A DNA stretch of 36,125 nucleotides, taken from IMG/VR virus record IMGVR_UViG_2651869781_000013. One strand, 5' to 3'. Positions 2,834 through 36,125 of this stretch are shown here, in pieces. The notes under the pieces are model-generated. The model had not been told where the DNA came from. It searched no databases and saw only the letters and a list, made by a program, of their open reading frames with translations. Position 1 is the first letter of the stretch. Each line of letters starts with the position of its first letter. The stretch is from a virus (taxonomy: Duplodnaviria > Heunggongvirae > Uroviricota > Caudoviricetes). The translations under genes and the position numbers were made by a program.

Positions 2834-2855
2834 TGGCGACAAAATGGCGGCAGCG
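2834..2855. repeat. attR core (prophage right junction)
   Basis: 21/22 identity with 36086-36107; lies immediately after the ogr stop codon, where attP sits in P2. Confidence 0.7.
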
Positions 2856-3074
2856 TCAAAGAGAGAGCGCCACCTGCCCTGATTTCATTGGATGCGGCTG
2901 AACCGGATTTGACTCTTTTGGCGTTGCAATCGAACGAACAAAAGTTTCATGGGTAACAAAAGTATGGCTGCAGTTAATGTTCTGGCACTGGTTGTAACGC
3001 TCTTTGGTCAATGAAGATACCTGAAAACTGCTGCGAGTATGGGCGGCACTTCCACACAGTGGGCAAATCATCAT
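2856..3074 (-). CDS. ogr: late-gene transcription activator Ogr (zinc finger)
   Basis: 72 aa from ATG at 3074 (MMICPLCGSAAHTR...CQNINCSHTF) with CxxC...CxxxxC; RBS GGGGAG upstream; the ORF-track start at 3107 is a GTG extension. Confidence 0.85.
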   Translation of the reverse strand: MMICPLCGSAAHTRSSFQVSSLTKERYNQCQNINCSHTFVTHETFVRSIATPKESNPVQPHPMKSGQVALSL

Positions 3075-3164
3075 TTTTCGAGTTCTCCCCATTTTTGCTA
3101 AATTCACAACAATGATACCGTATTATTCCATTTTGCAAACTTAAAAGTTCTCCATTGCGAAGAA

Positions 3165-4265
3165 TCATTCCATTTCGAAATCATCAATCCTCACTTCAAG
3201 CTCCAGACTGGTCGTAAAACCGTTATCCGGGCTGACAGTATGCGTCAGGGTGGTAATGGTCCATTCCGCATCATCTATCGGCTGTTTAAAACCACTGACT
3301 TTTACAGGCATTTCCGTGTAGAGATCTGCCCGACCTTCTGCCAGTTGTAGCGAGAATGACGCAACGCCGCGTTGCAGGCGTTCCCACTGCATTTTCGCCG
3401 CCCGTTCGGCGTTGCTCCGGTTGGCATAGGTGCGATTAAGTACCAGCACGTTTTCATCTGTACCCACCAGGTAATCGCCCTGCTTCGCTTCCGGCTCTTT
3501 CTTCTGCTTCTTAGTCCTGCGCTTACGCTTCACCGTGGTGCTTTCTTTCTTCGCAGGTTCGCGGGTATGCAACCAGCTGGCAATTACGCCCGTGTAGGCT
3601 CCGCGATCTGCCAGGGTAAATCGGTGACTGTCGCCGTCCTTGCGTGTGATAGTGATCACTGGCAGAGGTTTACCAGTGGCGCTTTTGCCCTGCCCCTGCC
3701 GGATGAATAACAGATTGCCATTTTTCACCGACGCGATGGCACCGTACTGTCGCGCCAGCCGCATCAGAAAACTGCCGTCACTCTCATTAGTCTGGTCTAT
3801 ATGCTCCACTGGCTTATCCGACAGGTCTTTACCCAGTGCCATCTTCAGCTTGTGCCGCGCGGCTATTTCCTTCACCACTTCCCCGACGGTGGTCTTGTGC
3901 CACGACTTTTCACGGCGGGTATTCAGCGTTTCACGAAAATCAGCACTTCGCGCCCGGATAGTCAGGCGGTCCGGTGCGCCAGTGTGTTCAATCTCGTCCA
4001 CCGTGAATGCCCCTTTCGGGAAAAGCGGCTGCCCCTTCCAGCCCAGCGCCAGCGTAATAACCGCACCACGGCGCGGCAGCACGATTTTTCCGTCAGCGTC
4101 ATCCAGCTCCAGATCAAGCTGGTCCGCTTCAAAGCCCCGGTTATCCATCAGCGTCAAACTCATCAGGCGGTTATCCAGCACAGTGGTGATATCCCTGCCC
4201 TCAATACTGATGCTGAATGCGGGAGTTTTGTTGCCTTTGTTAAGCAGTTCAGAGCTGAAATTCAC
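3165..4265 (-). CDS. D: tail protein gpD
   Basis: 366 aa, recalled similarity to P2 gpD (NRGFEADQLDLELDDADG ... VKVSGFK); GTG start overlapping the U stop (GTGA). Confidence 0.85.
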   Translation of the reverse strand: MNFSSELLNKGNKTPAFSISIEGRDITTVLDNRLMSLTLMDNRGFEADQLDLELDDADGKIVLPRRGAVITLALGWKGQPLFPKGAFTVDEIEHTGAPDRLTIRARSADFRETLNTRREKSWHKTTVGEVVKEIAARHKLKMALGKDLSDKPVEHIDQTNESDGSFLMRLARQYGAIASVKNGNLLFIRQGQGKSATGKPLPVITITRKDGDSHRFTLADRGAYTGVIASWLHTREPAKKESTTVKRKRRTKKQKKEPEAKQGDYLVGTDENVLVLNRTYANRSNAERAAKMQWERLQRGVASFSLQLAEGRADLYTEMPVKVSGFKQPIDDAEWTITTLTHTVSPDNGFTTSLELEVRIDDFEME

Positions 4266-4747
4266 GACAGCAGCCCTCCCACCGTTTTACTGATATCGCT
4301 TAAGGCAGACGTTGCCGTGTCCTGCAGATTATTCAGTTGCGCACTGAGATCACCGAACATATCGGACAGGGATTCATCCACTCGTTTGAGCGACAGGGTG
4401 AACTCAATCCGACGCGGCATACCGTCGCGGAAAAACTCCGTTTTAGTCTGATTCAGTCCCTCAATCACATACATGCCGTAAATCGTGCCGCTGCCTTCAA
4501 TCAGGGGCCATGCTTTCCCCTGTTCTGCCATCTGCTCCAGTGCCAGCAACGACAGCCTGCCGCCTGTTATTTCCGGCATAAGAACACCGGAAAGCGTCAG
4601 CATGTCGTTTTCCGGTCCCAGAAACTGCGTGGACGGACGTCGGTTTACCCGGCTGTTTGCCGCATGTCGCCAGCTGCGTTGATACTGCAGTTCCTGATAC
4701 GGAACGGTGCGCAGCATAAACACGTACAATCCCAGCACCATCATCAT
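4262..4747 (-). CDS. U: tail protein gpU
   Basis: 161 aa, ATG start overlapping the T stop (ATGA); P2 gene order T-U-D. Confidence 0.8.
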   Translation of the reverse strand: MMMVLGLYVFMLRTVPYQELQYQRSWRHAANSRVNRRPSTQFLGPENDMLTLSGVLMPEITGGRLSLLALEQMAEQGKAWPLIEGSGTIYGMYVIEGLNQTKTEFFRDGMPRRIEFTLSLKRVDESLSDMFGDLSAQLNNLQDTATSALSDISKTVGGLLS

Positions 4748-7700
4748 GCGTCGTATCCCCCCTGATCGCTGTAGTTACTCCTGGCTTTTGCCTTCAGCCT
4801 GCGTTCACGTTCATCAAGCTGGCGTGCCACCTCCCGCGCAATATCCTGCGCACTTTGTCCTGGCTGCGTCTGAATGATGATCTGCGTCGGTGCCTCAATC
4901 CGTTGAACGAGCGGCACAGTGGCTGCGCGACTCACAATTGCTTCTCCACCTTTCGCGGGAAGTGCCAAAGGGTGCAACGGTGGAAGCTCTGCTGGCGCGG
5001 CAGCAACGCCCATCATTCCGGCAACAACGGCAGCCAGTGCAGCTGTATTTCTCCGGCTGGTCACATTTGCCGGGCCGTTAACAATTTCCGGCCCGTTTTC
5101 ACCGACGATGCCAAACTGCCCGCGCGGGATATACCCGCCGCTGTCATACATCCCCGCAAAGCCATATCCCCATGATGGAAAACCACCCGATGGCATCATC
5201 ACTTTACCGTCTGCATTCACCGTCACAGGTTGCTGACGCGTCACGCTTTCCGGCAGTTTTGCCTTTGCGGCCTCTTTACTGACAATGCCGAGCTTCTCCA
5301 GCAACCAGGAAACGCCGGATTTCAGGGAGTCCAGCGGATGCATGACCATATTCAGCCCTTCCGCCAGTGCCTCCCCGAATCGCCGCCCCATTGCCGCTGC
5401 GCTCTGCAGTTCGGCAGAGGTCGACTTAACGGGCGTCAGCAGATCAGTAAACCAGCCCCACAGCGCCTGCACTTTGTCGCCAATCCACTGGAACACGGGC
5501 TTAAGCGGTTCGAACGCTGCACTGATGGGACCTGCCGCCGCTTTGAATCCTTCCACCACGCCACCGAGAAATGCGGTGATGGGTTGCCAGTATTTCCAGA
5601 CAACCAGCGCCACGCCCGCCAGTGCAGTAACCACAAGACCTATCGGACTGAGCAGAGCACCTAACAGACCAGATATGGCATACAGGGCAACGCGCAGCAT
5701 CGCCAGTGGACCAGATGCCAGTACTCGCAGCACCGTGCCTGCGGCGGCCAGTCCACCGCGCAGTACCGCCAGAGGATTCATAAACATCACAGCAACAGCA
5801 CGTAAACCGGATAATCCAGACCGCAAAAGTGCAACCGGCGCACCTGCTACAGTTTTCAGGACATTTCCCGTCAGTGATGCCGTGCGGCGCAAAGACGACA
5901 ACGGCGCAGTAAGTAAACCTGCGGCGTTGCCCGATGAAGCAAGCCCGCGTCGCAGCAGTGCCAGTGGTGCGCCAGCCAGCCAGGACAACGCGCTGCTGGT
6001 TCGAGTTACTGCTGCCGTAACGGAAGATAACGTTTTGATACCCAACACAGAGAATCCCAGACGGATCACTGCCAGCGGCCCCAGCACTGCAGCCAGCGCC
6101 ACCGCTAAGGTGCCGAGGCCGACGGTAACCGCAGCCACAACAGCCGATGCTTTCATCAGTGTGCCTGTCAGTTCCGGGTTAGCTTCCACCCAGCGACGCA
6201 ACGCCCCCGTGACGCTTTTCACCGTGTACAGAATATCCATCAGCGGCTGGCGCAGCGTTTCGCCCAGGCTGCTGAAGGTGTTCTGCGCTCCGGTTTTGAC
6301 CAGCAACCACTGCGCAGAAAGTGAATCCTTGTTAATGTCGGATTCTTTCTGCATGGAGCCGAGCGCATCATTGCCCGCTGTCAGTTTTAACTGACGCTGC
6401 AGTTCCGGCAGGTTGTTTGCCAGTTTCGCCGCGTCATCGCCAAACTCTTTACCAAACAACATAGTCATGGCAGACAGGCGCTTGTCCTGCGGCAGCGCGT
6501 TTACCTTCTCCAGCACGCGCTGGATGGTTCCCATCGCATCCTTCGTCATCTGCTTTTCAATCACTTCAGGATTGAGTTTCAGCAGATTCATCCCTTCAAA
6601 GAAACTCTTGCTTTGCATGGTGGCAATGGACAATTCACGCACCATCGCGTTTGCTGCACTGGCTGCAACCTCTGGCGCAGCGCCCAGTGTCAGGAAGGTG
6701 GAACCCAGCGCCGCCGCTTTACGATAATCCAGACGATCAGCCACACCGCCCAGACGTTGCATCACATCAATGATGTCTGCCCCTTTCGACATGGCGTTAT
6801 CATCCAGATAGTTCAGCGCATCACCGAGCTGTTCAATATTGCGGGTGGGGATTTTGTAGAGCTGGGCGATTTTCCCCAGACTTTCTGACAGTTCATCCGC
6901 TGGCAGCTCAAAGGCTGTTGCCGCCTTTGCTGCCGTACTGGCGAAGGCCAGCAGGTCACGTTTCTGATCTTCCCAGCTGTCGTCAGGGTTTGCGACGTTC
7001 ATGCGCGCACCACCTTCAACCAGTGCAGCGAAGTCCACCGCACCGTTTTCCATCGGCAACTGTTCGCTGGCAGCCTTGATGGCATCCTGCATTTCATAAA
7101 AACGTGCAGTGCGGTTGCCATTATCGTCACGCAGACCATTGACCTGCTTTGCCACACCTTTCATGGCATCTTCCATGCTGGTATAGCTTTTTACTGCCGC
7201 CATCACTGGCGCACCCATTGCCAGCCCTGCAGCCGTGGTGGTGGCTCCGGCACCTGCAATACGATCACGCACCTCCAGCGAACGGGCATAACTGGCACGC
7301 GCTGCATTCATCCTGCGCTGAGCTTCCCCCAGTCGCTTCAGCCGCGCCTCCTGTTTCGAAAGTTCCTGGTTATAACGTGATGTTTCACGGGCTAAACGGG
7401 CAGTTGCTCCCGCATCGTCTTTCGCAGAAATTCCCGCCCGGTACAGTTCAGCACGCACAAGCGCCGTCTGCTGCTGCAGCTTTTTCTGGCGTTCTTCCAG
7501 GCGCTGAACAGCCAGCCGTTGACGGCCCAGAGCAACAACCTGACGTTGCGAAGGCGGCCCCATCGCTCCCAGTTCCTGACTGAGCAAATTTGCACGCTGG
7601 CGGGCATAGTTCAGCCTGTCGCCTAATTTCTGATTTTCTGCCTGCAGCTTTCGGAAGCTGTCCAGACTGCTCCCGGCCTGATCAAGCTGCTTTATTGCAT

Positions 7701-7821
7701 CGCGGGATTTTTTGACAGCAGCAGCCAGTTCTCTTGAACTGGCCTGCGCAGATCGAAATGGGCGGGTGAGCTTGTCAACCGCATTAAGAATGACCTGCAG
7801 ACGCAGGTTGTTATCACTCAT
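4744..7821 (-). CDS. T: tail tape measure protein gpT
   Basis: 1025 aa, coiled-coil N-terminus and Ala/Gly/Leu-rich hydrophobic middle typical of tape measure proteins; position between E/E' and U. Confidence 0.85.
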   Translation of the reverse strand: MSDNNLRLQVILNAVDKLTRPFRSAQASSRELAAAVKKSRDAIKQLDQAGSSLDSFRKLQAENQKLGDRLNYARQRANLLSQELGAMGPPSQRQVVALGRQRLAVQRLEERQKKLQQQTALVRAELYRAGISAKDDAGATARLARETSRYNQELSKQEARLKRLGEAQRRMNAARASYARSLEVRDRIAGAGATTTAAGLAMGAPVMAAVKSYTSMEDAMKGVAKQVNGLRDDNGNRTARFYEMQDAIKAASEQLPMENGAVDFAALVEGGARMNVANPDDSWEDQKRDLLAFASTAAKAATAFELPADELSESLGKIAQLYKIPTRNIEQLGDALNYLDDNAMSKGADIIDVMQRLGGVADRLDYRKAAALGSTFLTLGAAPEVAASAANAMVRELSIATMQSKSFFEGMNLLKLNPEVIEKQMTKDAMGTIQRVLEKVNALPQDKRLSAMTMLFGKEFGDDAAKLANNLPELQRQLKLTAGNDALGSMQKESDINKDSLSAQWLLVKTGAQNTFSSLGETLRQPLMDILYTVKSVTGALRRWVEANPELTGTLMKASAVVAAVTVGLGTLAVALAAVLGPLAVIRLGFSVLGIKTLSSVTAAVTRTSSALSWLAGAPLALLRRGLASSGNAAGLLTAPLSSLRRTASLTGNVLKTVAGAPVALLRSGLSGLRAVAVMFMNPLAVLRGGLAAAGTVLRVLASGPLAMLRVALYAISGLLGALLSPIGLVVTALAGVALVVWKYWQPITAFLGGVVEGFKAAAGPISAAFEPLKPVFQWIGDKVQALWGWFTDLLTPVKSTSAELQSAAAMGRRFGEALAEGLNMVMHPLDSLKSGVSWLLEKLGIVSKEAAKAKLPESVTRQQPVTVNADGKVMMPSGGFPSWGYGFAGMYDSGGYIPRGQFGIVGENGPEIVNGPANVTSRRNTAALAAVVAGMMGVAAAPAELPPLHPLALPAKGGEAIVSRAATVPLVQRIEAPTQIIIQTQPGQSAQDIAREVARQLDERERRLKAKARSNYSDQGGYDA

Positions 7822-8250
7822 CGTTGGCCCCGCTTCTCTGAATCGCTTTATACCGCCATTCCAGCACTTCGGTCAGCGGCATAACGTCAGTAACGGATGG
7901 CGGCCAGTGAAAAATGGTGGCGATATCTGCCACCAGATCGTCAACCGTCAGGCTGTCGGTAAACCGGCAAGCACCGACTTCTTCAACAAAAAAGTGACAA
8001 CCTCAACCGACATGGCAGTGAGATCTGCCGGGTCCATCTCTGCAATTTCCTGTGCAGTCAGTGCCGGACTGGAGATGCGGGGGATCACGGTCATCATCGC
8101 GTTTACATCCATATCCATAATGGCCTGCAGGCGTGTACCGCGCAGCGCACCGGACTGCGGTTTACGCAGTACAATTTCGGTGATTTCTGTTTTACCGCGC
8201 TTGATGGGGGTATCCAGTTGAATGGTCTTTTCAGTCTGCTTATCGCTCAT
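7814..8250 (-). CDS. tail assembly chaperone gpE+E' (programmed -1 frameshift product)
   Basis: Slippery heptamer T TTT TTG at 7993-7987 (minus strand) in the E frame; the -1 frame is open for 59 further codons and its stop (7816-7814) overlaps the T start. Confidence 0.75.
7948..8250 (-). CDS. E: tail assembly chaperone gpE
   Basis: 100-aa ORF directly upstream of T; contains the slippery heptamer near its 3' end. Confidence 0.8.
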   Translation of the reverse strand: MSDKQTEKTIQLDTPIKRGKTEITEIVLRKPQSGALRGTRLQAIMDMDVNAMMTVIPRISSPALTAQEIAEMDPADLTAMSVEVVTFLLKKSVLAGLPTA

Positions 8251-8304
8251 TTTGCTGTCCTGTCAATTGGGTTCTGGCGCGGTATCCCGCGCCGTTCAGA
8301 TATA

Positions 8305-8820
8305 TCAGAGGCCGAGGGCGTTGCGGTGCGCTTCCATCAGGTCCACACCGTCCACAATTTCCACCATGTTGATAAGGTCCACTTCATAGAGCACCTCACC
8401 ATTGATGGTCAGCTTCGCGTAGCTGTTGGTACTGGTCACTTTGGTGGTGTTGCTTTCGCCCGTCTTCCACTCGCCGGAATCCACTTCTTTATGACGTCCA
8501 CGCACGACAAGCTCCACGGCCTGCACTTCCCCGGTATCGTCACGCTGAATAGAGCCGGTAAAGCGCAGCTGGATGCCATCCACCGTGGCTTTCCCCATCT
8601 GTTTAAACAGCAGCAATTCAGTACCACCAATGGAAAATTCTGTGTCCAGCGCACTGTCATCAAGCCCCAGATCCACATCCACCGCACCCGGCATTCCGCC
8701 GCCGCGATACTTCTCATATTTGCGGGTAAATTTCGGCAGCGTCAGCGACTCAACGATCCCCTGCCAGTTGTTCCCGTCGTTAAACAGGTTCAGGTGTTTT
8801 AATTTGCGTGGTAAAGCCAT
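8305..8820 (-). CDS. FII: tail tube protein gpFII
   Basis: 171 aa, ATG start with RBS GGGGA; position downstream of FI as in P2. Confidence 0.85.
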   Translation of the reverse strand: MALPRKLKHLNLFNDGNNWQGIVESLTLPKFTRKYEKYRGGGMPGAVDVDLGLDDSALDTEFSIGGTELLLFKQMGKATVDGIQLRFTGSIQRDDTGEVQAVELVVRGRHKEVDSGEWKTGESNTTKVTSTNSYAKLTINGEVLYEVDLINMVEIVDGVDLMEAHRNALGL

Positions 8821-8829
8821 GTTGTCCCC

Positions 8830-10002
8830 TTACGCGCTGACCTGGCTGGCGAAATTCACCAGGTACTGATCGGTGATGCGCTGACGCAGCATCAGGTTTT
8901 CAAGTGGCGGCACTGGCGTGTAGTCGTAGTCGATGGTGAGTTTTCCGGCTTTCAGCGTGTCTTTGTCGTTCACCGACTCATCCAGCCAGCAATCACCACC
9001 AATGAGATAGCCCTGACTGACCAGGCTGCGCATTTTGGCGCGGATACCCTCGATAATGTCGCGCGCCAGCGACGGGTTAAGCGGTTTATCCACCGCCCAC
9101 ATGTGTGCTTCTGCCATCGTGTCCATCAGCACCTGCGCCGTGCGGGTGTAGTTTTCGAAGGCAAAGAGCGGGTCATCACTCAGGCAGCGGGAACCCCAGA
9201 AGCGGAAACCGTCTTTACGCACAAGCGTGGTGACGTCGTTCTGGTTCAGCAGACCTGCATCGGTTGCCGGGTCCTGCAGATCCCAGAACACATCTGCAGA
9301 AATTCCGGTGACACCGTTCACGCCCACGTTGGACAGGCTTTTGTGCCATCCGGTCTGCTCGTCAATTTTGGCGCGCAGACCAAGCGCACGGGCGGTAGCA
9401 TATGCCGTTGCTTCGGCATTCAGCACCGTGTCCCAGCCAGTAAAGTCAGGCCAGATCAGCATCCCTTCGCGCTGGCTGAAGTTTTCGCGGTAAGTGATCG
9501 CCTCCTGCACTGTCTTGCAGCCATACGCTGACAGGTAAGCAAATCCACGCAGGCTTTGCGCCACGCTCAGCAACTCAGTAGCTACCGCCTTGGTGTCGTG
9601 GCCTGGCACGCCGAGAATGCGCGGTTTAACGCCGAGCTGTGACTGGGCAGATAACAGGGCTTTCATACCTGTTTTTTTACCTTCAGCAGTCACTGCGCCG
9701 ATGATATTGGTCGTGGTTTCGTCTTCCGTTTCACCCTGCGGCACACGCACAACAATGGTCACGGGTTTTGCCTGGTCAGCGATGGCATCCAGCGAACGGG
9801 CCAGAGTACCTGACTCACCCGCTTTACCGCTGGCAGTCAGCACATCAGTGATCAGCACGGGTTTATTAAGAGGAAACATTTTTGCATCGGCATCATCGCC
9901 CGTGCAGACCATACCCACGATGGCGGTGCTCACCGTGGTAATAGATCGGGTGCCTTCGTTGACTTCAACAACGCGCACCCCGTGGTGGTAATCCTGAGCC
10001 AT
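8830..10002 (-). CDS. FI: contractile tail sheath protein gpFI
   Basis: 390 aa, strong RBS AGGAGG; recalled similarity to P2 FI. Confidence 0.9.
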
Positions 10003-10078
10003 AGTGGCGAACCTCCTGATTGGATTAGGCTTCGCCCTATGTTGAAGTGATTGTGCCTGACAAACAGCTAAGCGCAGT

Positions 10079-10096
10079 TGTGTCGTTATTCACACA
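10079..10096. promoter_or_regulatory. Ogr-type activator dyad TGT-N12-ACA of late promoter P_F
   Basis: TGTGTCGTTATTCACACA; centre about 85 bp upstream of the FI ATG. Confidence 0.55.
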
Positions 10097-10144
10097 AAAT
10101 AACGGTATTTGTCTGCTTGCAGGGATAATCAACATAATGCTGAT

Positions 10145-10711
10145 TCAGGGGGATTCATTGATCTTATTTGCCGGAAATTTTCTATAAATGGTAGAAACGC
10201 CTACATCAAAAATCAGTGCAATACGCTGTCTTGATTCTCCGGCCTCGAGTAAACGCCCAATCTGTGCCCACTGTTCGGTGGTCAACTTAGGACGGCGTCC
10301 ACCTACTCTGCCTTTGGCACGAGCTGCAGCCAGCCCTGCCCTGGTACGTTCAACTATCAGTTCGCGTTCCATTTCAGCCAGGGCACCCATGACATGAAAA
10401 AAGAAACGGCCCATTGGGGTACTGGTATCAATACTGTCAGTCAGGCTTCTGAAATTCACACCACGCTGGCGCAACTCTTCTATCAGCGTAACAAGATGTC
10501 GCATACTGCGCCCCAACCTGTCCAGCTTCCAGACAACCAGCGTGTCTCCTGCCGATAGTGTCCTGAGTAGTTTTTTCAGCCCCGGTCTGTCGGACTTAGT
10601 GCCACTGATTTTGTCCTCAAAAATCCGCTCACATCCCGCGCAGTTCAGTGCATTACGTTGCAAATCGGTGTTCTGGTCATTTGTTGACACGCGTACATAG
10701 CCAATAAGCAT
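10145..10711 (-). CDS. serine DNA invertase (Gin/Hin/Pin/Cin family)
   Basis: 188 aa from ATG 10711: MLIGYVRVSTNDQNTDLQ...DTLVVWKLDRLGRS...C-terminal HTH; closely resembles recalled Mu Gin; RBS GGGGGA. Confidence 0.9.
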   Translation of the reverse strand: MLIGYVRVSTNDQNTDLQRNALNCAGCERIFEDKISGTKSDRPGLKKLLRTLSAGDTLVVWKLDRLGRSMRHLVTLIEELRQRGVNFRSLTDSIDTSTPMGRFFFHVMGALAEMERELIVERTRAGLAAARAKGRVGGRRPKLTTEQWAQIGRLLEAGESRQRIALIFDVGVSTIYRKFPANKINESP

Positions 10712-10767
10712 GATCATCCCCCTGAATAAAAACCGGAGATGATGCCAGTTAGCTGTTACCTCTGCAT

Positions 10768-28202: not shown

Positions 28203-30617
28203 TTAATACAGGTTTCGCCACTTATCATCTTCCTGCAAACGCTGGTTCCGATAGAAGATACGCAGGCCTGCTCCTGACGGAATACTGCCGCCGCGAAGCA
28301 GTAAATCGACCTCTTTCTCGCTGCCATCAAATCCCCTGGACTTCAGTTCATACACGAGCTGCTGTCGCTGATGATCTGTAATTCGCTGTTTGTAGTCTTT
28401 ACGCCGTTTCGGTTTTACAAGGCGTAACCTTGCTGCCAGTTCCCGGCGCTCTTTTTTGCTCATACTGTGCAGGTAATCGTGCAACTCCTTGTCATCCATG
28501 CGGGTGATATCCGTTCTGGTATCTCCATCAGCTGATTTGTCTTTCCCTTGTTGGTACAAATTTTCAGCAAGGGGACAGTTATTGCCACGAGTCCAAGGGG
28601 CGCAAGCGCCCTGGTCGGCTGCCGCCTCCTGAACGTCAACGGCTTTACGAACCATTTTCCACTTCACTGCATGAGTGCAGATCTTGCCCTCTGCAATGGG
28701 TGACCAGATGCCATAAATACGAATGCCGTGATCGCCATAGGCGGTCGGCTCTTCGTTGATTTCATAAGCGGTTCTGATGAGGTGATATTTACGGGGAACC
28801 AGTACGCCGCCCTGCTTCATGATGTAGGTGGCAAAACAACCAGCATCAGCAGCAGCCAGAATGGCATCAAGACGCGGGTTATCCAGTACCGGCGCACCTG
28901 CTTTTTTGTCACCCTGTTGCCTTGCCGCCTGACCAGCCAGCAAGCGAAGTTCACGGTAAGCCTGACGCCCCGGAATACCAAAGAAGCGGAATTGCTGAAC
29001 ACGATGCAGAGACGCCCAGGCATTCACGTATTCAGCGTTATCACGCAGAGATTTACCCGTTTCCTTGCTGATCTCGCCAGCCAGACCACGACCGTCAATG
29101 TTCTTACTGATATATTTCGCGATGTAGCTTGTCGGCGTTCCTTTGCGCGGGTTAATCAACTCAGACTTAAAGCGCGGCCCAGTGTTATTGCCCAGCTCCT
29201 CGCGGTCTTCACGAATGGCAAACTTACGCAGTAATGCAGTGATGGCACGGCGGTCTTTTTTGCGCATGAAACACAACAGGTGCCAGTGAACTGTGCCATC
29301 ATGATGCGGCTCAGCCACCCGCACGCCATACCAGCGCAACCCGGCTTTGTGCATCGCCTTACGAAATGCAGCAAACATGCCGACCAGATAATCGCTGCTT
29401 TGTCTTACCGTCGCGTTTGTCCAGGTCGGGTTTGGTCTGCCGTTATTTAGCGTGGAATGGAAACGCGACGGACAGGTGATAGTGTAGAAAACGGCGCAGT
29501 CACCGCGCATTTCCGCGATAAGCTCCAGACCTTTAACACAGGCCATCATCTCATTGCGGCGATGCGCAGGGTTGCTGCTGCTGGCGTTTACCACATCCTC
29601 CATGTCCAGCGTGTCGCCGTCTTCGTTCACCAGTTCATGAGAACGGAAAAACTCCAGCGACTTACGGCGCTGCTCACGTTTATGCAACACGGCTTCATAG
29701 CTGACATAGGGAGATGCTTTTTTGCTGACAAGGCAGACAGCACGCAACTGCTCTTCCCGCCATTCGCAACGCATCTTCCATAATTTCCGATACCACCAGT
29801 CGGCGCACAACATACGCGCCAGCGAACCCGGAATGAGTTCATAGGGCACGGGTTTACGGCGGTTTCTTTTCCGACGGAGTTGCTCAAACGCAGGCGGGAT
29901 TACATCCAGACGCAGGGTTTTCGCTGCCACCCTTTCCCATGTATTGCGGATTTCTTCTGGCTTAACGTCATCGGTGGCATACAAATCGCCACAAGCGGCA
30001 TCAAGGCACATACTCATATGCGCAGCTACCAGGGTGGACAGGCGTTTCACCTGATCCTGACTCATTTCAGGCAGGAACAGCAGGCCGTCCAGCCCTTCAT
30101 GGCTTGCCATAAAGCGAAAAGATGCAGATAGCTGACTGTCGCGTACATGCTCCAGTCGTTCCAGACATGGCTTAATCGTCTCACGTAAATAGCGGGAATA
30201 AGCCTTTGGCCTGCCAAGGCTGCTGAAGTATTCAATACGTTGCATCAGCGGCTTGCTGATATGGGAAGGCTGGGCGTTGACGTCCGCCAGAATGACCATA
30301 TCCGGATTAAAACGCTGCTGCTCATGCACCAGCTTTGCCCGACTAATGAGCTTATCCTGTTCCATTTCGCGCTGGACAGGATCACGGGATTCATTAAAGA
30401 AATAACGCTCCCAGACCTGATCACTCAGCGCCTCACGGCGCAGCTGTTCCTGCTCGTTATCGGCAGCGTACAGAGTGATCAGGTTTGAAAGCGTAGAAAC
30501 CGGCGCAACTTCCACCGGGTCCAGATAAGGGTTAATGGCCTTTTTCGGGCTGTTCCATGAGAACGATGCGGCAGCTTCGTTAAAGCCGCAGCAGTTGTTC
30601 ATATCGGCATGACTCAT
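28203..30617 (-). CDS. A: replication initiation protein gpA (rolling-circle nickase family)
   Basis: 804 aa; contains [12 protein letters not shown]-type motif; positioned as in P2/186. Confidence 0.85.
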
Positions 30618-31471
30618 GCACGTACTCCGTACACGGCAGAACTATCCACGCCACGCGAATAATCAAATCCCACCCAGCAGCGCGGCCCGGAAACAGCAAT
30701 GATTTCTGTTGCTGATTTACCCTCGCCAGCTGCCACACCGATGCTGCGTTTTGCCTTGATGTAGTGGTGAGTAAAATTGCGATACAGCGAACGGATCAGG
30801 GATGTGTCACTGTTAGAAACAATGACCGGATGTCCTTCTGATGACCGATGTTCAAGAACAGATGCCAGGTGATACTGGTCATCTTCAGTGAAGCCGTCAG
30901 TGTGATAGCCGGAAAACGTACCGTCATACGGCGGATCGCAATACACCACATCCCCCGCCTTCAACATCGCCAGCGTTTCATCAAAGCTGGCGCAGATAAA
31001 CGTTGCTCGCTGGGCCTTTTCTGCAAATGCGCGAATTTCTTTTTCAGGGAAATACGGATTTTTATAATTACCGTAGGGAATGTTGAAATGCCCGCTCTTG
31101 TTATAGCGACATAAACCACGGTAACCGTGACGATTGAGATACAGGAAATATACCGCTTTCATGAAATCAGTAATTTCAGTGGAGTAATTAAACTCCTGCC
31201 TTATGTTGTAATAAGCCACCTCCCTGTTTGCGATCTCAAATAAAACTCTGGCGCGAGATATAAACGATTCACAATCAGCGGCAACCTTTTTATAGAGGTT
31301 GATTAAATCAGGATTAATATCCGCAACCAGATAGCTGGGGTAATCCGTCTCCATCATCACAGCACAGGAACCCGCGAAAGGTTCAACCAGTCGCGGGCCA
31401 GCAGGAAGGTGTTTTTTCAGTTCGGACATAATGGCGGTTTTATTTCCCGCCCATTTCAGGATGGTGCTCAT
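30614..31471 (-). CDS. DNA N6-adenine methyltransferase (Dam-like)
   Basis: 285 aa from ATG 31471; motifs LKWAGNK (SAM binding) and DPPY; stop overlaps the A start. Confidence 0.8.
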
Positions 31472-31695
31472 ACAGCACCTCCGTTGTAATGTTTGCCTTT
31501 CAGCTCTGCGATTTCCTGGCAGGTAATGCAAAGCTGCACTCCCGGAATGGCGCGGCGTCGTGCTGGCGGAATTGGCGCTTCACATTCAATACAAAGCACG
31601 CGAGACACGCCCGGTGTTTTGGCACGGGCAGCACGAATATGGCGCTGGCGTTCTTCTTCAACGCGCTGCTGTACGAGATCCATTGCATCAGCCAT
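31468..31695 (-). CDS. TraR/DksA-family C4 zinc-finger protein
   Basis: 75 aa with CIECEAPIPPARRRAIPGVQLCITCQ (CxxC-N17-CxxC). Confidence 0.7.
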   Translation of the reverse strand: MADAMDLVQQRVEEERQRHIRAARAKTPGVSRVLCIECEAPIPPARRRAIPGVQLCITCQEIAELKGKHYNGGAV

Positions 31696-31928
31696 TAGTG
31701 GATCTCCTGCGCTTCGTTCTGGATTGCTTCAGCAGTTACACGCAGTAGTTCTGCTGCTTCCACGTGGTTTAGCTGACGGGATGAGATATGACACGCCAGG
31801 CTATCAAGGCGAGCTGCCATTGCTTCAGCCCTTGCCCGGCGTTCTTCCAGACGAGCCACTGTCAGTAAAATATTAAGCCCTGCATCATCCGATCCGGTTT
31901 TAGTCGTGAGGATCTCAATATTACGCAT
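31695..31928 (-). CDS. hypothetical early protein
   Basis: 77 aa from ATG 31928 with RBS AGGAG; in the early operon. Confidence 0.45.
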   Translation of the reverse strand: MRNIEILTTKTGSDDAGLNILLTVARLEERRARAEAMAARLDSLACHISSRQLNHVEAAELLRVTAEAIQNEAQEIH

Positions 31929-31995
31929 AATCAATTCTCCTGAATTTAGATAAAGGGATGCTCGGCGGGTTTACGCCATTAATTTCATTAGTTGG

Positions 31996-32337
31996 TTAAT
32001 TCGGCATGGTTAGCCGTCTGGGAAATAAGCTCACCACTGCACGAAAATGATTCATTGCTTTAATCAACTCCCGCTTTTCGTCAGTGGTCAGCTCATTGAT
32101 GCTGATGCTATGACGTTCAGCCGGAATTTTTGCCATAAAGAATATGGCTGCCAGTGCTCGTTTATTTTGTTCGTTATTGATATCCCGTGGATCACGCATA
32201 TCTTTAATAAACCGCTCAAGCTCTGACTCAATATTCAGGCCAAAAACTTTTGCCCTTAATTCCGCTATGTGATTAAGTCCATTCAGGCGTTCACCGGGGC
32301 TTAATGGAACAGTCGCCGCAGCGCCTTCAATAGCCAT
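31996..32337 (-). CDS. hypothetical early protein
   Basis: 113 aa, ATG with RBS GGGGG. Confidence 0.5.
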   Translation of the reverse strand: MAIEGAAATVPLSPGERLNGLNHIAELRAKVFGLNIESELERFIKDMRDPRDINNEQNKRALAAIFFMAKIPAERHSISINELTTDEKRELIKAMNHFRAVVSLFPRRLTMPN

Positions 32338-32501
32338 TTGTTCCCCCGTTTTTTCGTAGATAGTTCTGCCAGCAATTCATCTTGTGAACGGCACGGATGC
32401 CAGCGTTTACCATCCTCACCCATGATCCAGCCGTGACCGTAGTGCATTGCCGGGCTTTGTTTTACCAGCAGCGATGCAAATGATGGTTCTTTCGTCAGCA
32501 T
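32301..32501 (-). CDS. hypothetical early protein
   Basis: 66 aa from ATG 32501 with RBS GAGGTG; overlaps the next gene. Confidence 0.4.
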   Translation of the reverse strand: MLTKEPSFASLLVKQSPAMHYGHGWIMGEDGKRWHPCRSQDELLAELSTKKRGNKWLLKALRRLFH

Positions 32502-32508
32502 AAGCACC

Positions 32509-33018
32509 TCACAGCAAACCGAATGAAGCACCGAGGCCAGTCACGGTATCAACTGCACTCGCCATCGCAGGATTAGCCTGTAAACGGGCCTGCAATGAAA
32601 CAGCAGCCAGCGCCATCAGTCGTGTTACAGAGTTAATGCTGCTGATAGCATCACGACGACCGGCACTAGTTTTTACATCACCAGATACCGCACCTGCTGC
32701 AACACGTCCGATCTCTGCAGTTGCGCTCATGACGTAATGCGGCAGTTTCTCTTTTGCAACCTCATTAATCGGTACACATGGCAGGCAGTGAATCTGTGCC
32801 AGAAAACCATCTACCAGCGTTGAATCTTCAGTCAGATCGGTAAGCAGCCAGATTTCTGGTGCGGTTAATAAATGAGGCTGAGCTGGGTTCAGCTTGTTCC
32901 GCAGAATCTGCACATTCATGCCTGCACGTTCTGCCAGTTGCACCAGATTGTGGCGCAGTGCAAATGCACGACAGGCTTCATCAAAATGTGGATGTTTGGA
33001 AACTTGGTAATCAAACAT
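32509..33018 (-). CDS. cII: CII-like lysogeny-establishment activator (phage 186 type)
   Basis: 169 aa from ATG 33018: [24 protein letters not shown]...QILRNKLNP; closely resembles recalled 186 CII. Confidence 0.85.
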
Positions 33019-33050
33019 GGTCAATGCCTCTGATGTATTTCAGAATCGAA

Positions 33051-33272
33051 CTAATTAAGGTTTAGATTGCATTCTGAAAGCGCATCAACGGTCATGGCTG
33101 CTATGTTGATCATCACTTTTTCGCGTTTTTTATCTTTGCGCAAACGGTGACGGATAAGGCGTCCATCAGCCAACATGTCATTGATGGTATCGATGGACAG
33201 TCCTGTCAGCTCGCTATAGCGTTCAATAGTCACATGAGGCGTGGTAAGAGTGATTGAAATGTTAGGTCTCAT
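33051..33272 (-). CDS. apl: Apl/Cox-like excisionase and early repressor
   Basis: 73-aa basic protein, first gene of the early operon immediately upstream of cII. Confidence 0.65.
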
Positions 33273-33397
33273 GATGCAACATTCCTCGTTTAATGATGAT
33301 TAATCAGGACGAATACGGATCGTTTGTATTTTGTGAACACCATAAACATACGATCGCACTGTGAAATCGTCAAGATAAAAGTTCACTTGGAGTGACC
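33273..33397. promoter_or_regulatory. lysis-lysogeny switch region (divergently arranged apl and cI)
   Basis: 125-bp AT-rich interval between the apl and cI starts with repeated TGTGAA/GTTCAC elements; exact operators and promoters not resolved. Confidence 0.4.
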
Positions 33398-33967
33398 ATG
33401 AATTTGGAGAAAGGCGGACGAGGCGCTATAGAGCGCATGGTAGAAGCTTATGGATTCAAAACTCGACAGGCGTTGTGCGATCATTTAGGAATCTCTAAAA
33501 GTACACTCGCTACACGCTACATGCGTGACTCATTCCCAGCAGAATGGGTAATCCAGTGCGCCCTTGAAACGGGCACCTCGCTTAATTGGCTCACAACTGG
33601 ACATGGTTCAAAGCAAACTTCAGGTAATACAAATACGATGGAAGTTGCTAAATATGTATTATCTGATGGTGCCTTGCGTGAAGACGGTTTTTATATTTTT
33701 GATAAGGGATTTCTACCCTCTACGTTTAAAAAACCTTTTGTCATCACAGATAACAATTCTGAATTTATTTGTGATAAAGAATTTGATGATATACGTGATG
33801 GTAAATGGGTAATAAGTATTGATGGCGAAATAACAATCCGCGACATTACTCGTTTACCCGGTGGAAGAATCTTCGTTGAAGGTGGAAACAGATCCTTCGA
33901 GTGCAAGATAGAAGATGTTGAAATAATTGGAAAAATTATAAGTTTAACAATTAAGTACGTTAGGTAA
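33398..33967 (+). CDS. cI: CI-like immunity repressor
   Basis: 189 aa from ATG 33398; N-terminal HTH (LGISKSTLATRYMRD); position as in 186. Confidence 0.65.
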   Translation: MNLEKGGRGAIERMVEAYGFKTRQALCDHLGISKSTLATRYMRDSFPAEWVIQCALETGTSLNWLTTGHGSKQTSGNTNTMEVAKYVLSDGALREDGFYIFDKGFLPSTFKKPFVITDNNSEFICDKEFDDIRDGKWVISIDGEITIRDITRLPGGRIFVEGGNRSFECKIEDVEIIGKIISLTIKYVR

Positions 33968-33982: not shown

Positions 33983-34174
33983 ATGCTTGGTAAGGTATTT
34001 TTTGTGGTTTTATCATGCTCTTTGTTATTAAACCCACTAACTACCTATGCTAAAAATTATCCTTGTTCTGGGAAAAAGGGAGGTGTCTCTCACTGTACCT
34101 CCGATGGAAAGTTCGTTTGCAATGATGGAACTATTAGTAAATCAAAAAAAATCTGTACTAAAAACTCGCGATAA
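33983..34174 (+). CDS. small secreted cysteine-containing protein (moron)
   Basis: 63 aa, RBS GGAGG; signal peptide [23 protein letters not shown]; basic mature part with 4 Cys; AT-rich. Confidence 0.5.
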
Positions 34175-34360
34175 TTTTTGCTTTTATATCTGCGCCTAAT
34201 ATAACAATGAGCCGCAGGCTAACCGCAAAAGTCACATACTCACATAGCAAAAAATAGCCAACTTCATTATGGCTTCAGTGAGATGTATGGTCGCAAGATT
34301 TCATACATTGACACTGGTTATACATACAGTAAAAATGCTCTCTATTGGAGGGCATTTTTT

Positions 34361-35392
34361 ATGGCAGTACGAAAACTCACCACAGGAAAATGGCTTTGCG
34401 AATGTTACCCCGCCGGACGTAGTGGGCGTCGTGTGCGTAAACAATTCGCCACCAAAGGCGAAGCACTGGCTTTTGAGCGTCACACGATGGAAGAAACCGA
34501 AGCAAAGCCCTGGCTGGGCGAATCAGTAGATCGTCGAACCCTGAAAGACGTGGTTGAGCTATGGTTCAAACTACATGGTAAATCTCTGACTGCTGGGCAG
34601 CATGTCTATGACAAATTGCTGCTGATGGTTGACGCTCTGGGCAATCCCCTTGCAACCGATCTCACATCTAAAATGTTTGCCCATTATCGAGATAAACGAC
34701 TGACAGGTGAGATCTACTTCAGCGAGAAATGGAAGAAAGGGGCCAGCCCGGTCACCATTAACCTGGAGCAAAGCTATCTAAGTAGTGTTTTTAGCGAACT
34801 ATCCCGCCTGGGCGAATGGTCGTATCCAAACCCACTGGAGAACATGCGAAAATTCACCATCGCAGAAAAAGAGATGGCATGGCTTACCCATGAGCAGATT
34901 GTTGAACTGCTGGATGATTGCAAACGTCAGGACCCAATTCTGGCACTGGTAGTCAAGATATGCTTAAGCACAGGCGCACGCTGGCGAGAAGCAATAAACC
35001 TTACCCGATCACAGGTGACCAAATACCGAATTACCTTTGTAAGAACGAAGGGGAAGAAAAACAGAAGCATCCCTATCAGTAAAGAGCTTTATGAAGAGAT
35101 CATGGCGCTTGATGGGTTCAATTTCTTCACAGACTGCTATTTTCAATTTTTATCCGTGATGGAAAAAACGTCTATCGTGCTCCCTCGCGGTCAACTTACA
35201 CACGTTCTGCGTCATACGTTTGCGGCGCATTTCATGATGTCGGGTGGAAACATCCTTGCTTTGCAAAAAATCCTCGGACATCACGACATAAAAATGACTA
35301 TGCGTTATGCTCATCTATCACCTGATCACTTAGAGACAGCTCTTCGTTTCAATCCACTAGCAACTTTGGATGTTACTAAATCAGATTCTTAA
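34361..35392 (+). CDS. int: tyrosine integrase (P2/186 family)
   Basis: 343 aa from ATG 34361; C-terminal motifs R...HxLRHT...Y (LTHVLRHTFA ... MTMRYAHL); adjacent to attL. Confidence 0.85.
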   Translation: MAVRKLTTGKWLCECYPAGRSGRRVRKQFATKGEALAFERHTMEETEAKPWLGESVDRRTLKDVVELWFKLHGKSLTAGQHVYDKLLLMVDALGNPLATDLTSKMFAHYRDKRLTGEIYFSEKWKKGASPVTINLEQSYLSSVFSELSRLGEWSYPNPLENMRKFTIAEKEMAWLTHEQIVELLDDCKRQDPILALVVKICLSTGARWREAINLTRSQVTKYRITFVRTKGKKNRSIPISKELYEEIMALDGFNFFTDCYFQFLSVMEKTSIVLPRGQLTHVLRHTFAAHFMMSGGNILALQKILGHHDIKMTMRYAHLSPDHLETALRFNPLATLDVTKSDS

Positions 35393-35402
35393 AGGTTCAA
35401 GC

Positions 35403-36125
35403 ATGGTTAAGTTTTTGTTTCAATTCCCAATATTCGACTTCTCCTTAACATTTGATATTATCGAGACGTTAATCACTCATAGCGAATCATCAATCGCTAA
35501 GGGTATAGCAGAATATAAAGACAAAGGACCTGAAGAATATATAATTGAAATATCTCCGGAAGATGGTGTATATCAGTCAATTGATCATTACATGGGACTC
35601 ACCAGCTCATCGCTAGATCTCGATGAAATGTTTTTAGAATACTACCCAAGTATTATCCGCAGGTCAGTATTCTTAACTATATTCGGAATTTTTGAGCACG
35701 AAATAGAAAAATTCTGTAACAACTTTGCTAATAGACATCATTCTCCTATAAATGTTTCAGATCTCAAAGGAAGTGGATTTGAGAGGAGTCATCTATTTAT
35801 CAAAAAAATGATAGGGATGAAGTCAACATCCCACTATTCGAATATCAAAAAAATAACAAAATTAAGAAACAGTTGTGCGCATAATGATGCAAAATACTTA
35901 GAAAACGATGGGCAAAATATTAAAAGCATTATTGAACTTATAGAAAAATATCCTGATTTTTTTAAAAAAGATGGAAAACAGGTCCTATTTATGGAGGGCT
36001 CGTTAAGCATGATCTTGAACTCATTCAAAGAGTATCTTTCTGATGTTGAAAGAGCCTTAGATGAATTCGAAAAACAAAGCACTAGTGGCGACAAAGTGGC
36101 GGCAGCGGTTGGCATTACCCCGTAA
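35403..36125 (+). CDS. hypothetical AT-rich cargo protein with possible HEPN Rx4H motif
   Basis: 240 aa from ATG 35403 (alternative ATG 35370 inside the int 3' end); motif KLRNSCAHN; last about 13 codons cross the attL core. Confidence 0.45.
   Translation: MVKFLFQFPIFDFSLTFDIIETLITHSESSIAKGIAEYKDKGPEEYIIEISPEDGVYQSIDHYMGLTSSSLDLDEMFLEYYPSIIRRSVFLTIFGIFEHEIEKFCNNFANRHHSPINVSDLKGSGFERSHLFIKKMIGMKSTSHYSNIKKITKLRNSCAHNDAKYLENDGQNIKSIIELIEKYPDFFKKDGKQVLFMEGSLSMILNSFKEYLSDVERALDEFEKQSTSGDKVAAAVGITP
36086..36107. repeat. attL core (prophage left junction)
   Basis: TGGCGACAAAGTGGCGGCAGCG, 21/22 identical to 2834-2855. Confidence 0.7.

Follow-up and report, generated by a model that had tools for sequence, protein, structure and literature searches.

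The 22-bp direct repeat near the two ends of this P2-family prophage most likely comprises predicted arm-type sites for the N-terminal domain of a heterobivalent integrase (Int), two sites in each arm of the phage attachment site. The junctions with host DNA lie outside the repeat, in a 14-bp core shared with the 3' end of the small RNA gene rybB. Both copies of the repeat are present in an unintegrated attP, they match the arm motif of the phage 186 group, and this motif is conserved despite changes in its coding context and in the core that it flanks.

The prophage and its host locus

The window, i.e. the whole stretch of 36,125 nt that was analyzed, contains a complete prophage of the P2 family, with ogr near its left end and int near its right, as is evident from the ORF map and Pfam matches. 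The first-pass annotation had correctly recognized this organization and the location just downstream of ybjL, while overlooking rybB, which is placed between ybjL and the left copy of the repeat. The Rfam model RF00110 (RybB) matches full-length at 2700-2778 with 105.3 bits (E 7e-21; gathering score 40), and the gene is identical in sequence to rybB of K-12. Taken together, the element is very probably a P2-family prophage with 186-type immunity and integrase, residing in the 3' end of rybB between ybjL and rcdA. Its principal features are:

935..2620, plus strand: ybjL (aspartate:alanine antiporter family), host gene on the left flank; a 561-aa ORF, annotated as ybjL at the matching position in K-12, WAT and A25
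2697..2778, plus strand: rybB sRNA gene, intact in the lysogen; 2697-2775 by annotation transfer from K-12, 2700-2778 by Rfam
2856..3074, minus strand: ogr (late-gene activator), terminal prophage gene on the left side; Pfam Ogr_Delta (E 5e-22), annotated in WAT at the matching position
3165..33272: P2-family prophage body, from ORFs and Pfam; collinear with the annotated WAT prophage, 92-97% identity outside variable blocks
33392..33967, plus strand: 186-type CI immunity repressor; Pfam Phage_CI_repr (E 3e-33) and Phage_CI_C (E 1e-28)
34361..35392, plus strand: 186-type tyrosine integrase; Pfam Int_N (E 3e-32) and Phage_integrase (E 4e-22); start as in the RefSeq annotation of AR_0019, the longest ORF beginning at 34283

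The body runs from the tail genes D, U, T, E, FII and FI through an invertase and variable tail-fibre region to the baseplate, lysis and head genes, and thence via terminase and portal to a cargo hotspot at 24906-27255; these are followed by a DinI-like gene, the replication gene A, a Dam methylase, Fil, CII and an Apl/Cox-like gene. The rybB gene has been listed among the insertion sites of P2-like prophages (PMC3032704), and in E. coli it is used very commonly. Among 5426 complete E. coli genomes, the left junction is found in 1110 and the right junction in 1123, such that about 20% of them carry a rybB-site junction.

A direct repeat close to both ends

The repeat and the phage DNA that follows its right copy are distributed thus:

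2834..2855, plus strand: left 22-mer TGGCGACAAAATGGCGGCAGCG, ogr-side (P-arm) pair of predicted 186-type Int arm-type sites in tandem, non-coding
36086..36107, plus strand: right 22-mer TGGCGACAAAGTGGCGGCAGCG, int-side (P'-arm) pair of predicted 186-type Int arm-type sites in tandem, coding here
36108..36125, plus strand: start of the remaining P' arm, its first 18 bp up to the window end; genomes of the identical type have 73 bp more of phage DNA

That these positions hold a genuine direct repeat, as initially reported, is borne out: the two 22-mers lie on the plus strand and are identical at 21/22 positions, and 100 dinucleotide-preserving shuffles returned 0 matches (chance expectation 0). 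A search tolerating 3 mismatches finds no further copy in the window. The left copy directly adjoins the stop codon of the minus-strand ORF at 2856-3074 coding for the Ogr/Delta zinc finger. The right copy is not intergenic, being located within the last codons of a 240-aa ORF (35403-36125) downstream of int. Each copy consists of two 11-bp units in tandem, TGGCGACAaaa and TGGCGGCAgcg, which share TGGCGRCA and are spaced one helical turn apart. On the left, these correspond to the 11-mers cgaTGGCGACA (2831-2841) and aaaTGGCGGCA (2842-2852), and on the right to tagTGGCGACA (36083-36093) and aagTGGCGGCA (36094-36104).

A near-perfect and highly non-random direct repeat outside ogr and beyond int occupies just the place where one would normally look for the att core of a P2-like prophage. 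It had hence been read as the att core duplicated by integration, with 2834-2855 and 36086-36107 as the prophage boundaries. On the evidence of the junctions, we consider this reading to have next to no probability.

The attachment core and the junctions

Comparison with empty and occupied sites places the following elements between rybB and the left arm sites:

2765..2778: true attachment core, rybB-side copy ATGGGTTTTTTGTT, 14 bp; the only stretch that is perfect in the junctions, the empty sites and the KP12 attP
2779..2791: 13-bp imperfect extension of the core, phage version gcctgaaatttat; 10/13 positions match the rcdA-side copy atctaaaatttat
2792..2833: P-arm spacer from the core to the arm-type sites; absent from empty sites and present in the KP12 attP

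The left junction in the window runs from the 3' end of rybB through the core into the ogr arm of the phage. The core is the sole perfect stretch common to this junction, the right junctions of the AR_0019, WAT, D7 and HS genomes, the empty sites and the attP of Klebsiella phage KP12. In the host, it constitutes the descending strand in the stem of the RybB terminator together with the U-tract (folding of this hairpin gives -23.3 kcal/mol, z -3.9), while in the phage it forms the equivalent portion of a small terminator hairpin beyond int. As the core is identical in host and phage, rybB remains intact after integration.

In K-12 and A25, the empty site follows the window as far as the end of rybB (2778) or as far as 2791 and then leads straight into rcdA, with the megablast match of empty sites ending at query position 232, i.e. 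2791 of the window. Between these two end points lies the 13-bp extension, whose phage version is identical to the allele of A25-type empty sites and is present in many empty sites. At the other end, the homology of non-lysogens to the right junction begins exactly at the A of ATGGG (query position 128). The window itself ends before the right junction, which was reconstructed from genomes that are 99.6-99.9% identical to it over the last 1.8-4.8 kb. For instance, AR_0019 is 99.6% identical to the last 4.8 kb (31283-36125), with the same arrangement of int plus the ORF, and has 73 bp of phage DNA past the last base of the window, followed by ATGGGTTTTTTGTT, atctaaaatttat and rcdA. Position 36125 of the window corresponds to 4843 in the AR_0019 locus and the core lies at 4917-4930 therein; accordingly, the second core copy would start at the position equivalent to 36199. 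The order phage int arm, core, rcdA is likewise present in WAT, D7 and HS. The crossover must fall inside the 14-bp core (2765..2778), within which its exact point is one that we infer only.

These junctions are incompatible with the repeat as the prophage boundary: empty sites break off at 2778-2791, 43-56 bp before the left 22-mer, and on the right at the 36199-equivalent, where near-identical lysogens have 91 bp more of phage DNA between the right 22-mer and the core. Furthermore, the 22-mer is absent from the ybjI-nfsA locus of K-12 (up to 3 mismatches) and from the rybB-rcdA interval of A25. Comparison with empty-site genomes was the check that the first-pass annotation had named beforehand; their junctions differ from those predicted by the repeat, and the 22-mer was accordingly rejected as the att core. 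The two copies do belong to attR and attL in the broad sense of lying in their arms. The crossover region is not about 210 bp downstream of ybjL as proposed, but 145-158 bp downstream of its stop, within the 3' end of rybB; the host gene holding the core, rybB, is on the plus strand, and the open minus-strand frames that had been noted through the repeat are in phage DNA and have no bearing on it.

The arm sites lie outside the region shared with attB: on the ogr side they start 52 bp past the core, and on the int side they end 94 bp short of it. Measured from the start of the core, the 22-mers start 69 bp after it (ogr side) and 113-114 bp before it (int side). In the spacer, an IHF-like match AATCATGATGTTA (2801-2813; IHF consensus, 1 mismatch) is without statistical support, there being 31 such matches vs 28.9 expected.

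The unintegrated attP of KP12 shows the arrangement in a single contiguous stretch: int, 22-mer, core, 22-mer and ogr, with the 22-mers 114 bp and 69 bp from the core and 183 bp from each other, start to start. A core would be single-copy in such an attP, but both 22-mers are present. This 'partial sequence' clone is the only unintegrated attP of the exact type that we found; none of the IMG/VR loci fetched has both arm pairs near each other.

The repeat as probable arm-type sites of the integrase

The pattern TGGCGR-N5-TGGCGR occurs only twice in the window, namely in the two 22-mers, and likewise only twice in the whole genome of phage 186, at the annotated arm sites. The phage 186 record describes these as 'Int arm-type recognition sequences; consensus YAYCGCCAYTY', labelled predicted, and the published arm consensus of the 186 type is tgccGCCActt (PMC3448106). 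When reverse-complemented, the segment AAGTGGCGGCA at 36094-36104 reproduces the latter exactly, while the left 22-mer matches the reverse complements of both. In terms of positions, the left 22-mer is 16-17/22 identical to the 186 arm pairs and the right one 18/22 identical to the int-side pair of 186.

The integrase of the window belongs to the same type: it is 55% identical to Int of 186, and its N-terminus (GKWLCECYP; GGWICELYP in 186) has the W/E/Y residues that serve as 186-type discriminators by the criterion of PMC3448106, whereas P2 (GRYEVDIRP) has Y/D/R. According to that study, the type of arm motif tracks the type of the Int N-terminus across P2-like phages. This correspondence argues against another protein, such as an Apl/Cox-like excisionase, CI or IHF, being the one that binds the 22-mers as phage-borne arm elements. 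Such binding can be entertained given that the 186 arm sites are themselves annotated as predicted and that accessory-factor sites, too, form direct repeats in attP arms, as in the annotations of P2 Cox and 186 Apl; however, the Apl and IHF sites of 186 map elsewhere, between the arm pairs and the core, and the annotated Int sites in the P and P' arms of P2 are found at these same two places and are likewise arranged in tandem at 11-bp spacing. A better candidate for an accessory-factor site is AACTTATTGTTTT, a different repeat with two copies in the P' arm shortly beyond the window. Hence, we regard a factor other than Int as improbable.

The location of the right 22-mer within an ORF, where it encodes SGDKVAAA, raises the question of whether coding, or a recent local duplication, could have produced the likeness of the two copies as a side effect, without any function at the DNA level. 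This appears highly improbable. The left copy is non-coding, and the int-side block is the same in different contexts: the int tail in WAT and KP12, the tail of another ORF in the window, and non-coding sequence in D7 and HS, amounting to three contexts, of which one is non-coding. The motif is also kept in PSP3 and 186, where it flanks unrelated cores and whose attPs otherwise have only short words in common with the window-type attP; indeed, the arm motifs are the longest words common to the PSP3 attP and the window-type attP. These observations favor arm-type sites recognized by Int as the preferred reading.

A cargo ORF downstream of int

The right 22-mer owes its present coding context to the following feature:

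35403..36125, plus strand: cargo ORF of 240 aa, AT-rich and probably HEPN-like; an insertion separating int from the P' arm sites

The ORF ends in 13 codons that represent the ancestral tail of int, SGDKVAAAVGITP; Int of the window is 99% identical to that of WAT up to residue 336. The arrangement of int plus this ORF is found in 25/5426 genomes. The product is probably HEPN-like: an Rx4-6H motif is conserved, with R155, N156 and H160 unchanged across 12 homologs whose identity goes as low as 40%. It scores below the curated HEPN cut-offs (HEPN_RiboL-PSP, 17.1 vs 28.4 bits; Abi_2, 14.7 vs 25.6 bits), and the PADLOC matches are at E 0.005-0.007 only. The cargo between int and the arm differs among rybB-site prophages: HS and D7 have an 89-aa ORF at this place, whereas WAT has none and retains a full-length int tail.

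Comparison with known attachment sites

The closest parallel to this architecture is the attP of phage 186 (Eganvirus; NC_001317), which presents in the same order B/ogr, a tandem arm pair, a core from the 3' end of a host RNA gene, the accessory-factor region, a second tandem arm pair, a small ORF (orf69) and int. The arm motif RARTGGCGRTR and its 11-bp spacing are the same (15-18/22 positions identical), and early genes of the CI, CII, Fil and Apl types are shared. The cores differ, that of the window being from the rybB terminator (14 bp perfect plus 13 bp imperfect) and that of 186 comprising 36 bp of tRNA-Ile (ileY). Phage 186 additionally carries a third int-side site and, on the B side, one more in inverted orientation; in the window, by contrast, the int-side pair is part of coding sequence.

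Other P2-like prophages occupy the same host site in rybB, between rcdA and ybjL: PhiECO1/2/3 and PhiSEN1, described by Nilsson et al. 2011 (PMC3448106), as well as Rybb*W/B/Cr, described by Archer et al. 2011 (PMC3032704). The published coordinates of PhiECO1 in E. coli HS stop at the last T of ATGGGTTTTTTGTT on both sides. The PhiECO1/Rybb* group shares with the window the ogr-side arm and the 186-type CI and Int group, while the content of the Q-A hotspot differs between the window and its rybB-site relatives.

In P2 (NC_001895), the attP has the same architecture of ogr, P-arm Int sites, IHF, core, Cox and P'-arm Int sites over the 3' end of int, with the same tandem 11-bp spacing and a total core of about 27 bp as in the window. 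However, the motif at the same two positions is TGTGGAC in lieu of TGGCGR, and P2, taken as a negative control, is without the TGGCGR motif. The core and host site (locI) differ as well, as does the switch, which is C/Cox in P2 and CI/Apl/CII in the window. In Salmonella phage PSP3 (NC_005340), the int-side pair is identical at 20/20 positions to the first 20 bases of the right 22-mer (36086-36105) and overlaps the 3' end of its int. On the pag/ogr side there is a related arm pair with a third arm site; the core between the arms is unrelated to that of the window and, unlike in the window, a terminator lies between pag and the arm sites.

Implications for integration at rybB

Judging from these parallels, the N-terminal domain of Int would bind the arm sites and thereby deliver the catalytic domains to the core. 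Arm binding, in conjunction with bending proteins such as IHF and an Apl/Cox-like excisionase, may assemble the intasome, and recombination would take place in the 14-bp ATGGGTTTTTTGTT, which is followed by 13 bp of partial identity. The attP itself carries the 22-mer twice, and the repeat is not a creation of integration. Both the rybB site and the arm consensus have already been published, and the case is one of ordinary biology.

The prophage is bounded by a core at rybB and not by the 22-bp repeat

The P2-family prophage carries a 22-bp direct repeat near each end, with both copies exactly at the positions read in the first-pass annotation (2834-2855 and 36086-36107). No further match with up to three mismatches is found in the window, and none in shuffled sequence. 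The features around the two copies are:

2834-2855: left copy of the 22-mer, TGGCGACAAAATGGCGGCAGCG, adjoining the stop codon of the Ogr/Delta zinc-finger gene
2856-3074, minus strand: Ogr/Delta zinc-finger gene (ogr)
34361-35392: tyrosine integrase gene (int)
35403-36125: 240-aa ORF, its last base being the last base of the window, with the right 22-mer within its final codons
36086-36107: right copy of the 22-mer, TGGCGACAAAGTGGCGGCAGCG, downstream of int

That annotation had also taken the repeat as the att core and thereby as the prophage boundary. The left boundary is thereby misplaced by about 56-77 bp and the right one by about 92-105 bp, the true core lying elsewhere. Its account of the interval between ybjL and the left copy further omitted a full-length RybB sRNA gene, which is detected at 2700-2778 on the plus strand (105 bits against an Rfam gathering score of 40) and is identical in sequence to rybB of K-12. 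In K-12, which has an empty site, the gene order is rcdA, then rybB 19 bp on, then ybjL. Identity between K-12 and the window ceases at 2778 (…ggttgATGGGTTTTTTGTT), followed by a partly similar 13-mer and then the rcdA stop. The empty site of A25 instead matches the window through 2791, with rcdA starting 4 bp further. With window 2560-2900 as a query, full-length matches are obtained in 1110 of 5426 complete E. coli genomes, and about one-fifth of such genomes carry the rybB junction. In those of the remaining genomes that were sampled down the ranking, the match stops at query 219-240, mostly at 232, which is window 2791. The 22-mer is absent from the K-12 locus. Taken together, the breaks at the empty sites and this absence place 2792-2855 in phage DNA and the left copy inside the element; from the alignments, 2779-2855 as a whole is probably phage DNA too.

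The 13 bp past the core (2779-2791) are dimorphic among empty sites, being atctaaaacttat in K-12 and gcctgaaatttat in A25-type genomes; the latter is the version found in the phage P arm, as in the window. The dimorphism might be an ancestral polymorphism or a phage-derived scar. The Nissle 1917 assembly NZ_CP007799 (912996-916235) had been expected to offer a variant P arm, an expectation that was dropped: it has the ybjL 3' end and rybB three times in tandem upstream of rcdA, which may reflect genuine amplification or misassembly and is uninformative for the att question.

The window stops short of the right junction, which was hence read from other genomes with the same right end. The same int-plus-ORF arrangement is found in 25 genomes, 24 of them at 99.7-99.9% identity. 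In the lysogen AR_0019, 99.6% identical to window 31283-36125, the base matching 36125 is followed by 73 bp more of non-host DNA and then by ATGGGTTTTTTGTT, atctaaaatttat and the rcdA stop; the right ends in WAT, D7 and HS have the same structure. A right-junction query matches without a break in 1123 of the 5426 complete E. coli genomes, while in non-lysogens the match starts at query 128-129, 128 being the A of ATGGGTTTTTTGTT. This structure and the start of the non-lysogen matches point to a second copy of the core at window-equivalent 36199-36212, i.e. 74 bp past the end of the window as projected from the AR_0019-type genomes, and the right 22-mer lies 91 bp inside the element.

The core is a terminator half in both host and phage

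The 14-bp ATGGGTTTTTTGTT (window 2765-2778) is the only sequence common to both junctions, the empty sites and the phage attP; over the next 13 bp the two junctions agree at 10 of 13 positions. In the host it forms the descending strand of the RybB terminator stem together with the U-tract (hairpin of -23.3 kcal/mol), and in the phage these 14 bp complete a smaller hairpin that lies downstream of int (-9.0 kcal/mol). Integration swaps one terminator half for its identical counterpart, and rybB is unchanged. We also considered a crossover within AAATTTAT of the 13-bp extension, which is disfavoured: since the host side of the annotated attL in the Klebsiella relative 4LV2017 diverges after …GTTGCCTG, with that stretch missing from its junction beyond GCCTG, the crossover is better placed in the 14-19 bp on the left than further right. 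For prophage PhiECO1 of E. coli HS, the published coordinates (916812-948276; PMC3448106) land, on both sides, on the last T of ATGGGTTTTTTGTT. For the P2-like prophages Rybb*W, Rybb*B and Rybb*Cr, Archer et al. give the insertion site as 'rybB ncRNA' (PMC3032704).

A 12-mer, TTTTTGTTGCCT (window 2770-2782), is shared with the tail of the predicted lysogenic-operon terminator of phage 186 (20820-21170 of the retrieved 186 sequence, minus strand). This match was read by eye, and a word search of KP12 against 186 gave only the 9-mer TTTTTGTTG. The shared 12-mer hints that the recombination core of this phage lineage arose from the int-operon terminator itself.

The 22-mers are probable pairs of integrase arm sites

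Each 22-mer is made up of two 11-bp units in tandem, TGGCGACA-nnn and TGGCGGCA-nnn. The curated record of phage 186 describes 'predicted Int arm-type recognition sequences; consensus YAYCGCCAYTY; 3 sites to left of attP and 2 sites to right'; these lie on either side of a core located in the tRNA-Ile 3' end, and the IHF and Apl sites fall between them. The reverse complement of this consensus is RARTGGCGRTR. Similarly, the 186-type consensus of Nilsson et al., tgccGCCActt (PMC3448106), occurs exactly, as its reverse complement aagTGGCggca, at window 36094-36104. The pattern TGGCGR-N5-TGGCGR occurs just twice in the 36-kb window, as the two 22-mers, and just twice in the 30.6-kb genome of phage 186, at the annotated arm sites; the 22-mers agree with the 186 arm pairs at 15-18 of 22 positions.

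In the Salmonella phage PSP3, the int side has TGGCGACAAAGTGGCGGCAG, which overlaps the 3' end of int and is identical over 20/20 positions to the first 20 bases of the right copy, and the side of the ogr homolog has TGGCGGCAAATTGGCGGCAG. Between the PSP3 arm pairs the sequence shows no relation to the rybB core, and no words shared by the two attP regions are longer than the arm motifs. The TGGCGR tandem is missing from P2, the negative control, where the two positions are instead taken by TGTGGAC tandems carrying the annotation Int P arm and P' arm; the latter overlaps the 3' end of P2 int. The motif co-occurs with a 186-type integrase: the window Int is 55% identical to that of 186, and its N-terminus (GKWLCECYP) has W/E/Y, residues proposed by Nilsson et al. 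to mark 186-type arm recognition, as against Y/D/R for the P2 type (PMC3448106).

The coding context of the motif varies. In WAT and KP12, int ends in the block AGTGGCGACAAAGTGGCGGCAGCGgttggcattaccccgtaa, which encodes …PSGDKVAAAVGITP*; in the window the block is the 3' end of the unrelated 240-aa ORF; in D7 and HS it is non-coding, the ORF upstream of it being a different one of 89 aa. The copy on the ogr side is non-coding in every case. The retention of the arm block as int tail, as part of another ORF and as non-coding DNA argues for conservation at the DNA level.

The unintegrated attP of the Klebsiella phage KP12 provides the most direct view of this arrangement. Here int and ogr are just 165 bp apart, in the order int 3' end with TGGCGACAAAGTGGCGGCAGCG, 92 bp, ATGGGTTTTTTGTT, gtctgaaatttat, 42 bp, TGGCGACAAATTGGCGGCAGAG and ogr stop. 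As a core would occur once in such an attP, the two 22-mers flanking it are arm elements, both borne by the phage. For the circular attP of the window's prophage, the predicted order is correspondingly …TGGCGACAAAGTGGCGGCAGCG, about 91 bp, ATGGGTTTTTTGTTgcctgaaatttat, 42 bp and TGGCGACAAAATGGCGGCAGCG-ogr, which would put the starts of the two 22-mers about 182 bp apart. A scan of IMG/VR with TGGCGACAAARTGGCGGCAG matched at least 120 stretches, and two tandem pairs within 60-500 bp were seen in none of the fetched loci. Many of the matches listed fall at contig ends, leaving KP12 as the sole direct attP of the exact type found. Three IMG/VR contigs (L026, L060 and L065) have the arm 20-mer twice on the same strand, 7.8-10.7 kb apart; as this is far below the length of a full prophage, they may be deleted remnants or satellite-like elements.

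Proposed recombination mechanism and accessory sites

By analogy with the heterobivalent tyrosine integrases of P2, 186 and lambda (PMC3448106), the N-terminal domain of Int would bind the four arm sites and bending proteins would fold the arms and so bring the catalytic domains onto the core. The phage would then integrate at the rybB terminator through strand exchange within ATGGGTTTTTTGTT, while an Apl/Cox-like protein (gene 33051-33272) would direct excision. A second direct repeat, AACTTATTGTTTT present twice, is found in the P' arm immediately beyond the end of the window; PSP3 has a counterpart of it, and it is a candidate binding site for an accessory factor. The P arm has a match to the IHF consensus at 2801-2813, which we retain as a positional hint only, because such matches occur about as often as chance predicts (31 versus 28.9 expected).

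A terminator is found directly after the ogr homolog in each of phage 186, P2 and PSP3. A simple consensus scan shows no terminator match between the ogr stop and rybB (2779-2856, minus strand). The same scan over 2600-3200 found none on either strand, but it is blind to the RybB terminator itself, the loop of which is too long, and is thus uninformative on a terminator between ogr and rybB. Late or ogr transcription might read antisense into rybB in the lysogen.

The int-att interval and other variable blocks

The 240-aa ORF is AT-rich (GC 0.30-0.35 versus about 0.47 within int) and occupies precisely the interval from int to the P' arm sites. Its placement fits a cassette inserted after Int residue 336, its C-terminus being the ancestral Int tail encoded by the arm sites. 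Homologs at 75-79% identity from other Enterobacteriaceae retain this tail, while those at 60% or below are without it. The possibility that the ORF spans the crossover, with its C-terminus changed on excision, was rejected as it stops 73 bp before the true core. The same interval has other contents elsewhere:

D7, 2369-2638 of the retrieved locus: 89-aa ORF
HS, 1147-1416 of the retrieved locus: 89-aa ORF
WAT, around 8068 of the retrieved locus: empty interval, int tail full-length

All three states (nothing, the 89-aa ORF and the 240-aa ORF) switch at one nucleotide, just 5' of AGTGGCGAC, suggesting that the arm site may be a fixed boundary for cassette exchange. The 240-aa protein has an invariant R-N-x3-H motif and sub-threshold matches to HEPN domains; a Foldseek search against the PDB gave no match below E 0.4. 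A 2026 survey reports the int-to-att interval as a minor defence hotspot of P2-like phages (PMC13586616). We tentatively raise, as a rather unlikely reading, that the ORF is an uncharacterised single-gene HEPN-type anti-phage or abortive-infection module in this minor 'int-att' hotspot, with the arm site as the fixed boundary of exchange.

Two other blocks are variable. The classical P2 hotspot between the portal gene Q and the replication gene A has three ORFs of 282, 256 and 269 aa (24906-27255, minus strand), whose sole family match is a marginal HTH_3 in the middle ORF and for which PADLOC returned nothing significant; WAT instead has a phosphoribosyltransferase and a DprA-like gene there. 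A serine invertase (10145-10717, minus strand; Pfam Resolvase and HTH_7) adjoins tail-fibre and tail-fibre-assembly ORFs on both strands (10739-12165), a block in which collinearity with WAT is lost and which probably represents an invertible host-range segment.

Implications for P2-like prophages

The prophage is a member of the published P2-like group at rybB, with a 186-type attP architecture. Both the use of an sRNA 3' end as attB and heterobivalent integrases with arm sites are established biology, and the rybB site and the arm consensus are each in the literature; the finding is thus already known, and its value lies in the boundary correction. In a P2-like prophage, the att core is not necessarily the longest direct repeat near the ends: here that repeat is a pair of probable integrase arm sites. 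If the boundary is drawn at the 22-mer, it goes unseen that the target of the phage is the terminator of a sigma-E-dependent sRNA gene, which stays intact, and automated boundary calling from terminal repeats could err likewise in the complete E. coli genomes with this junction, roughly 20% of the total.
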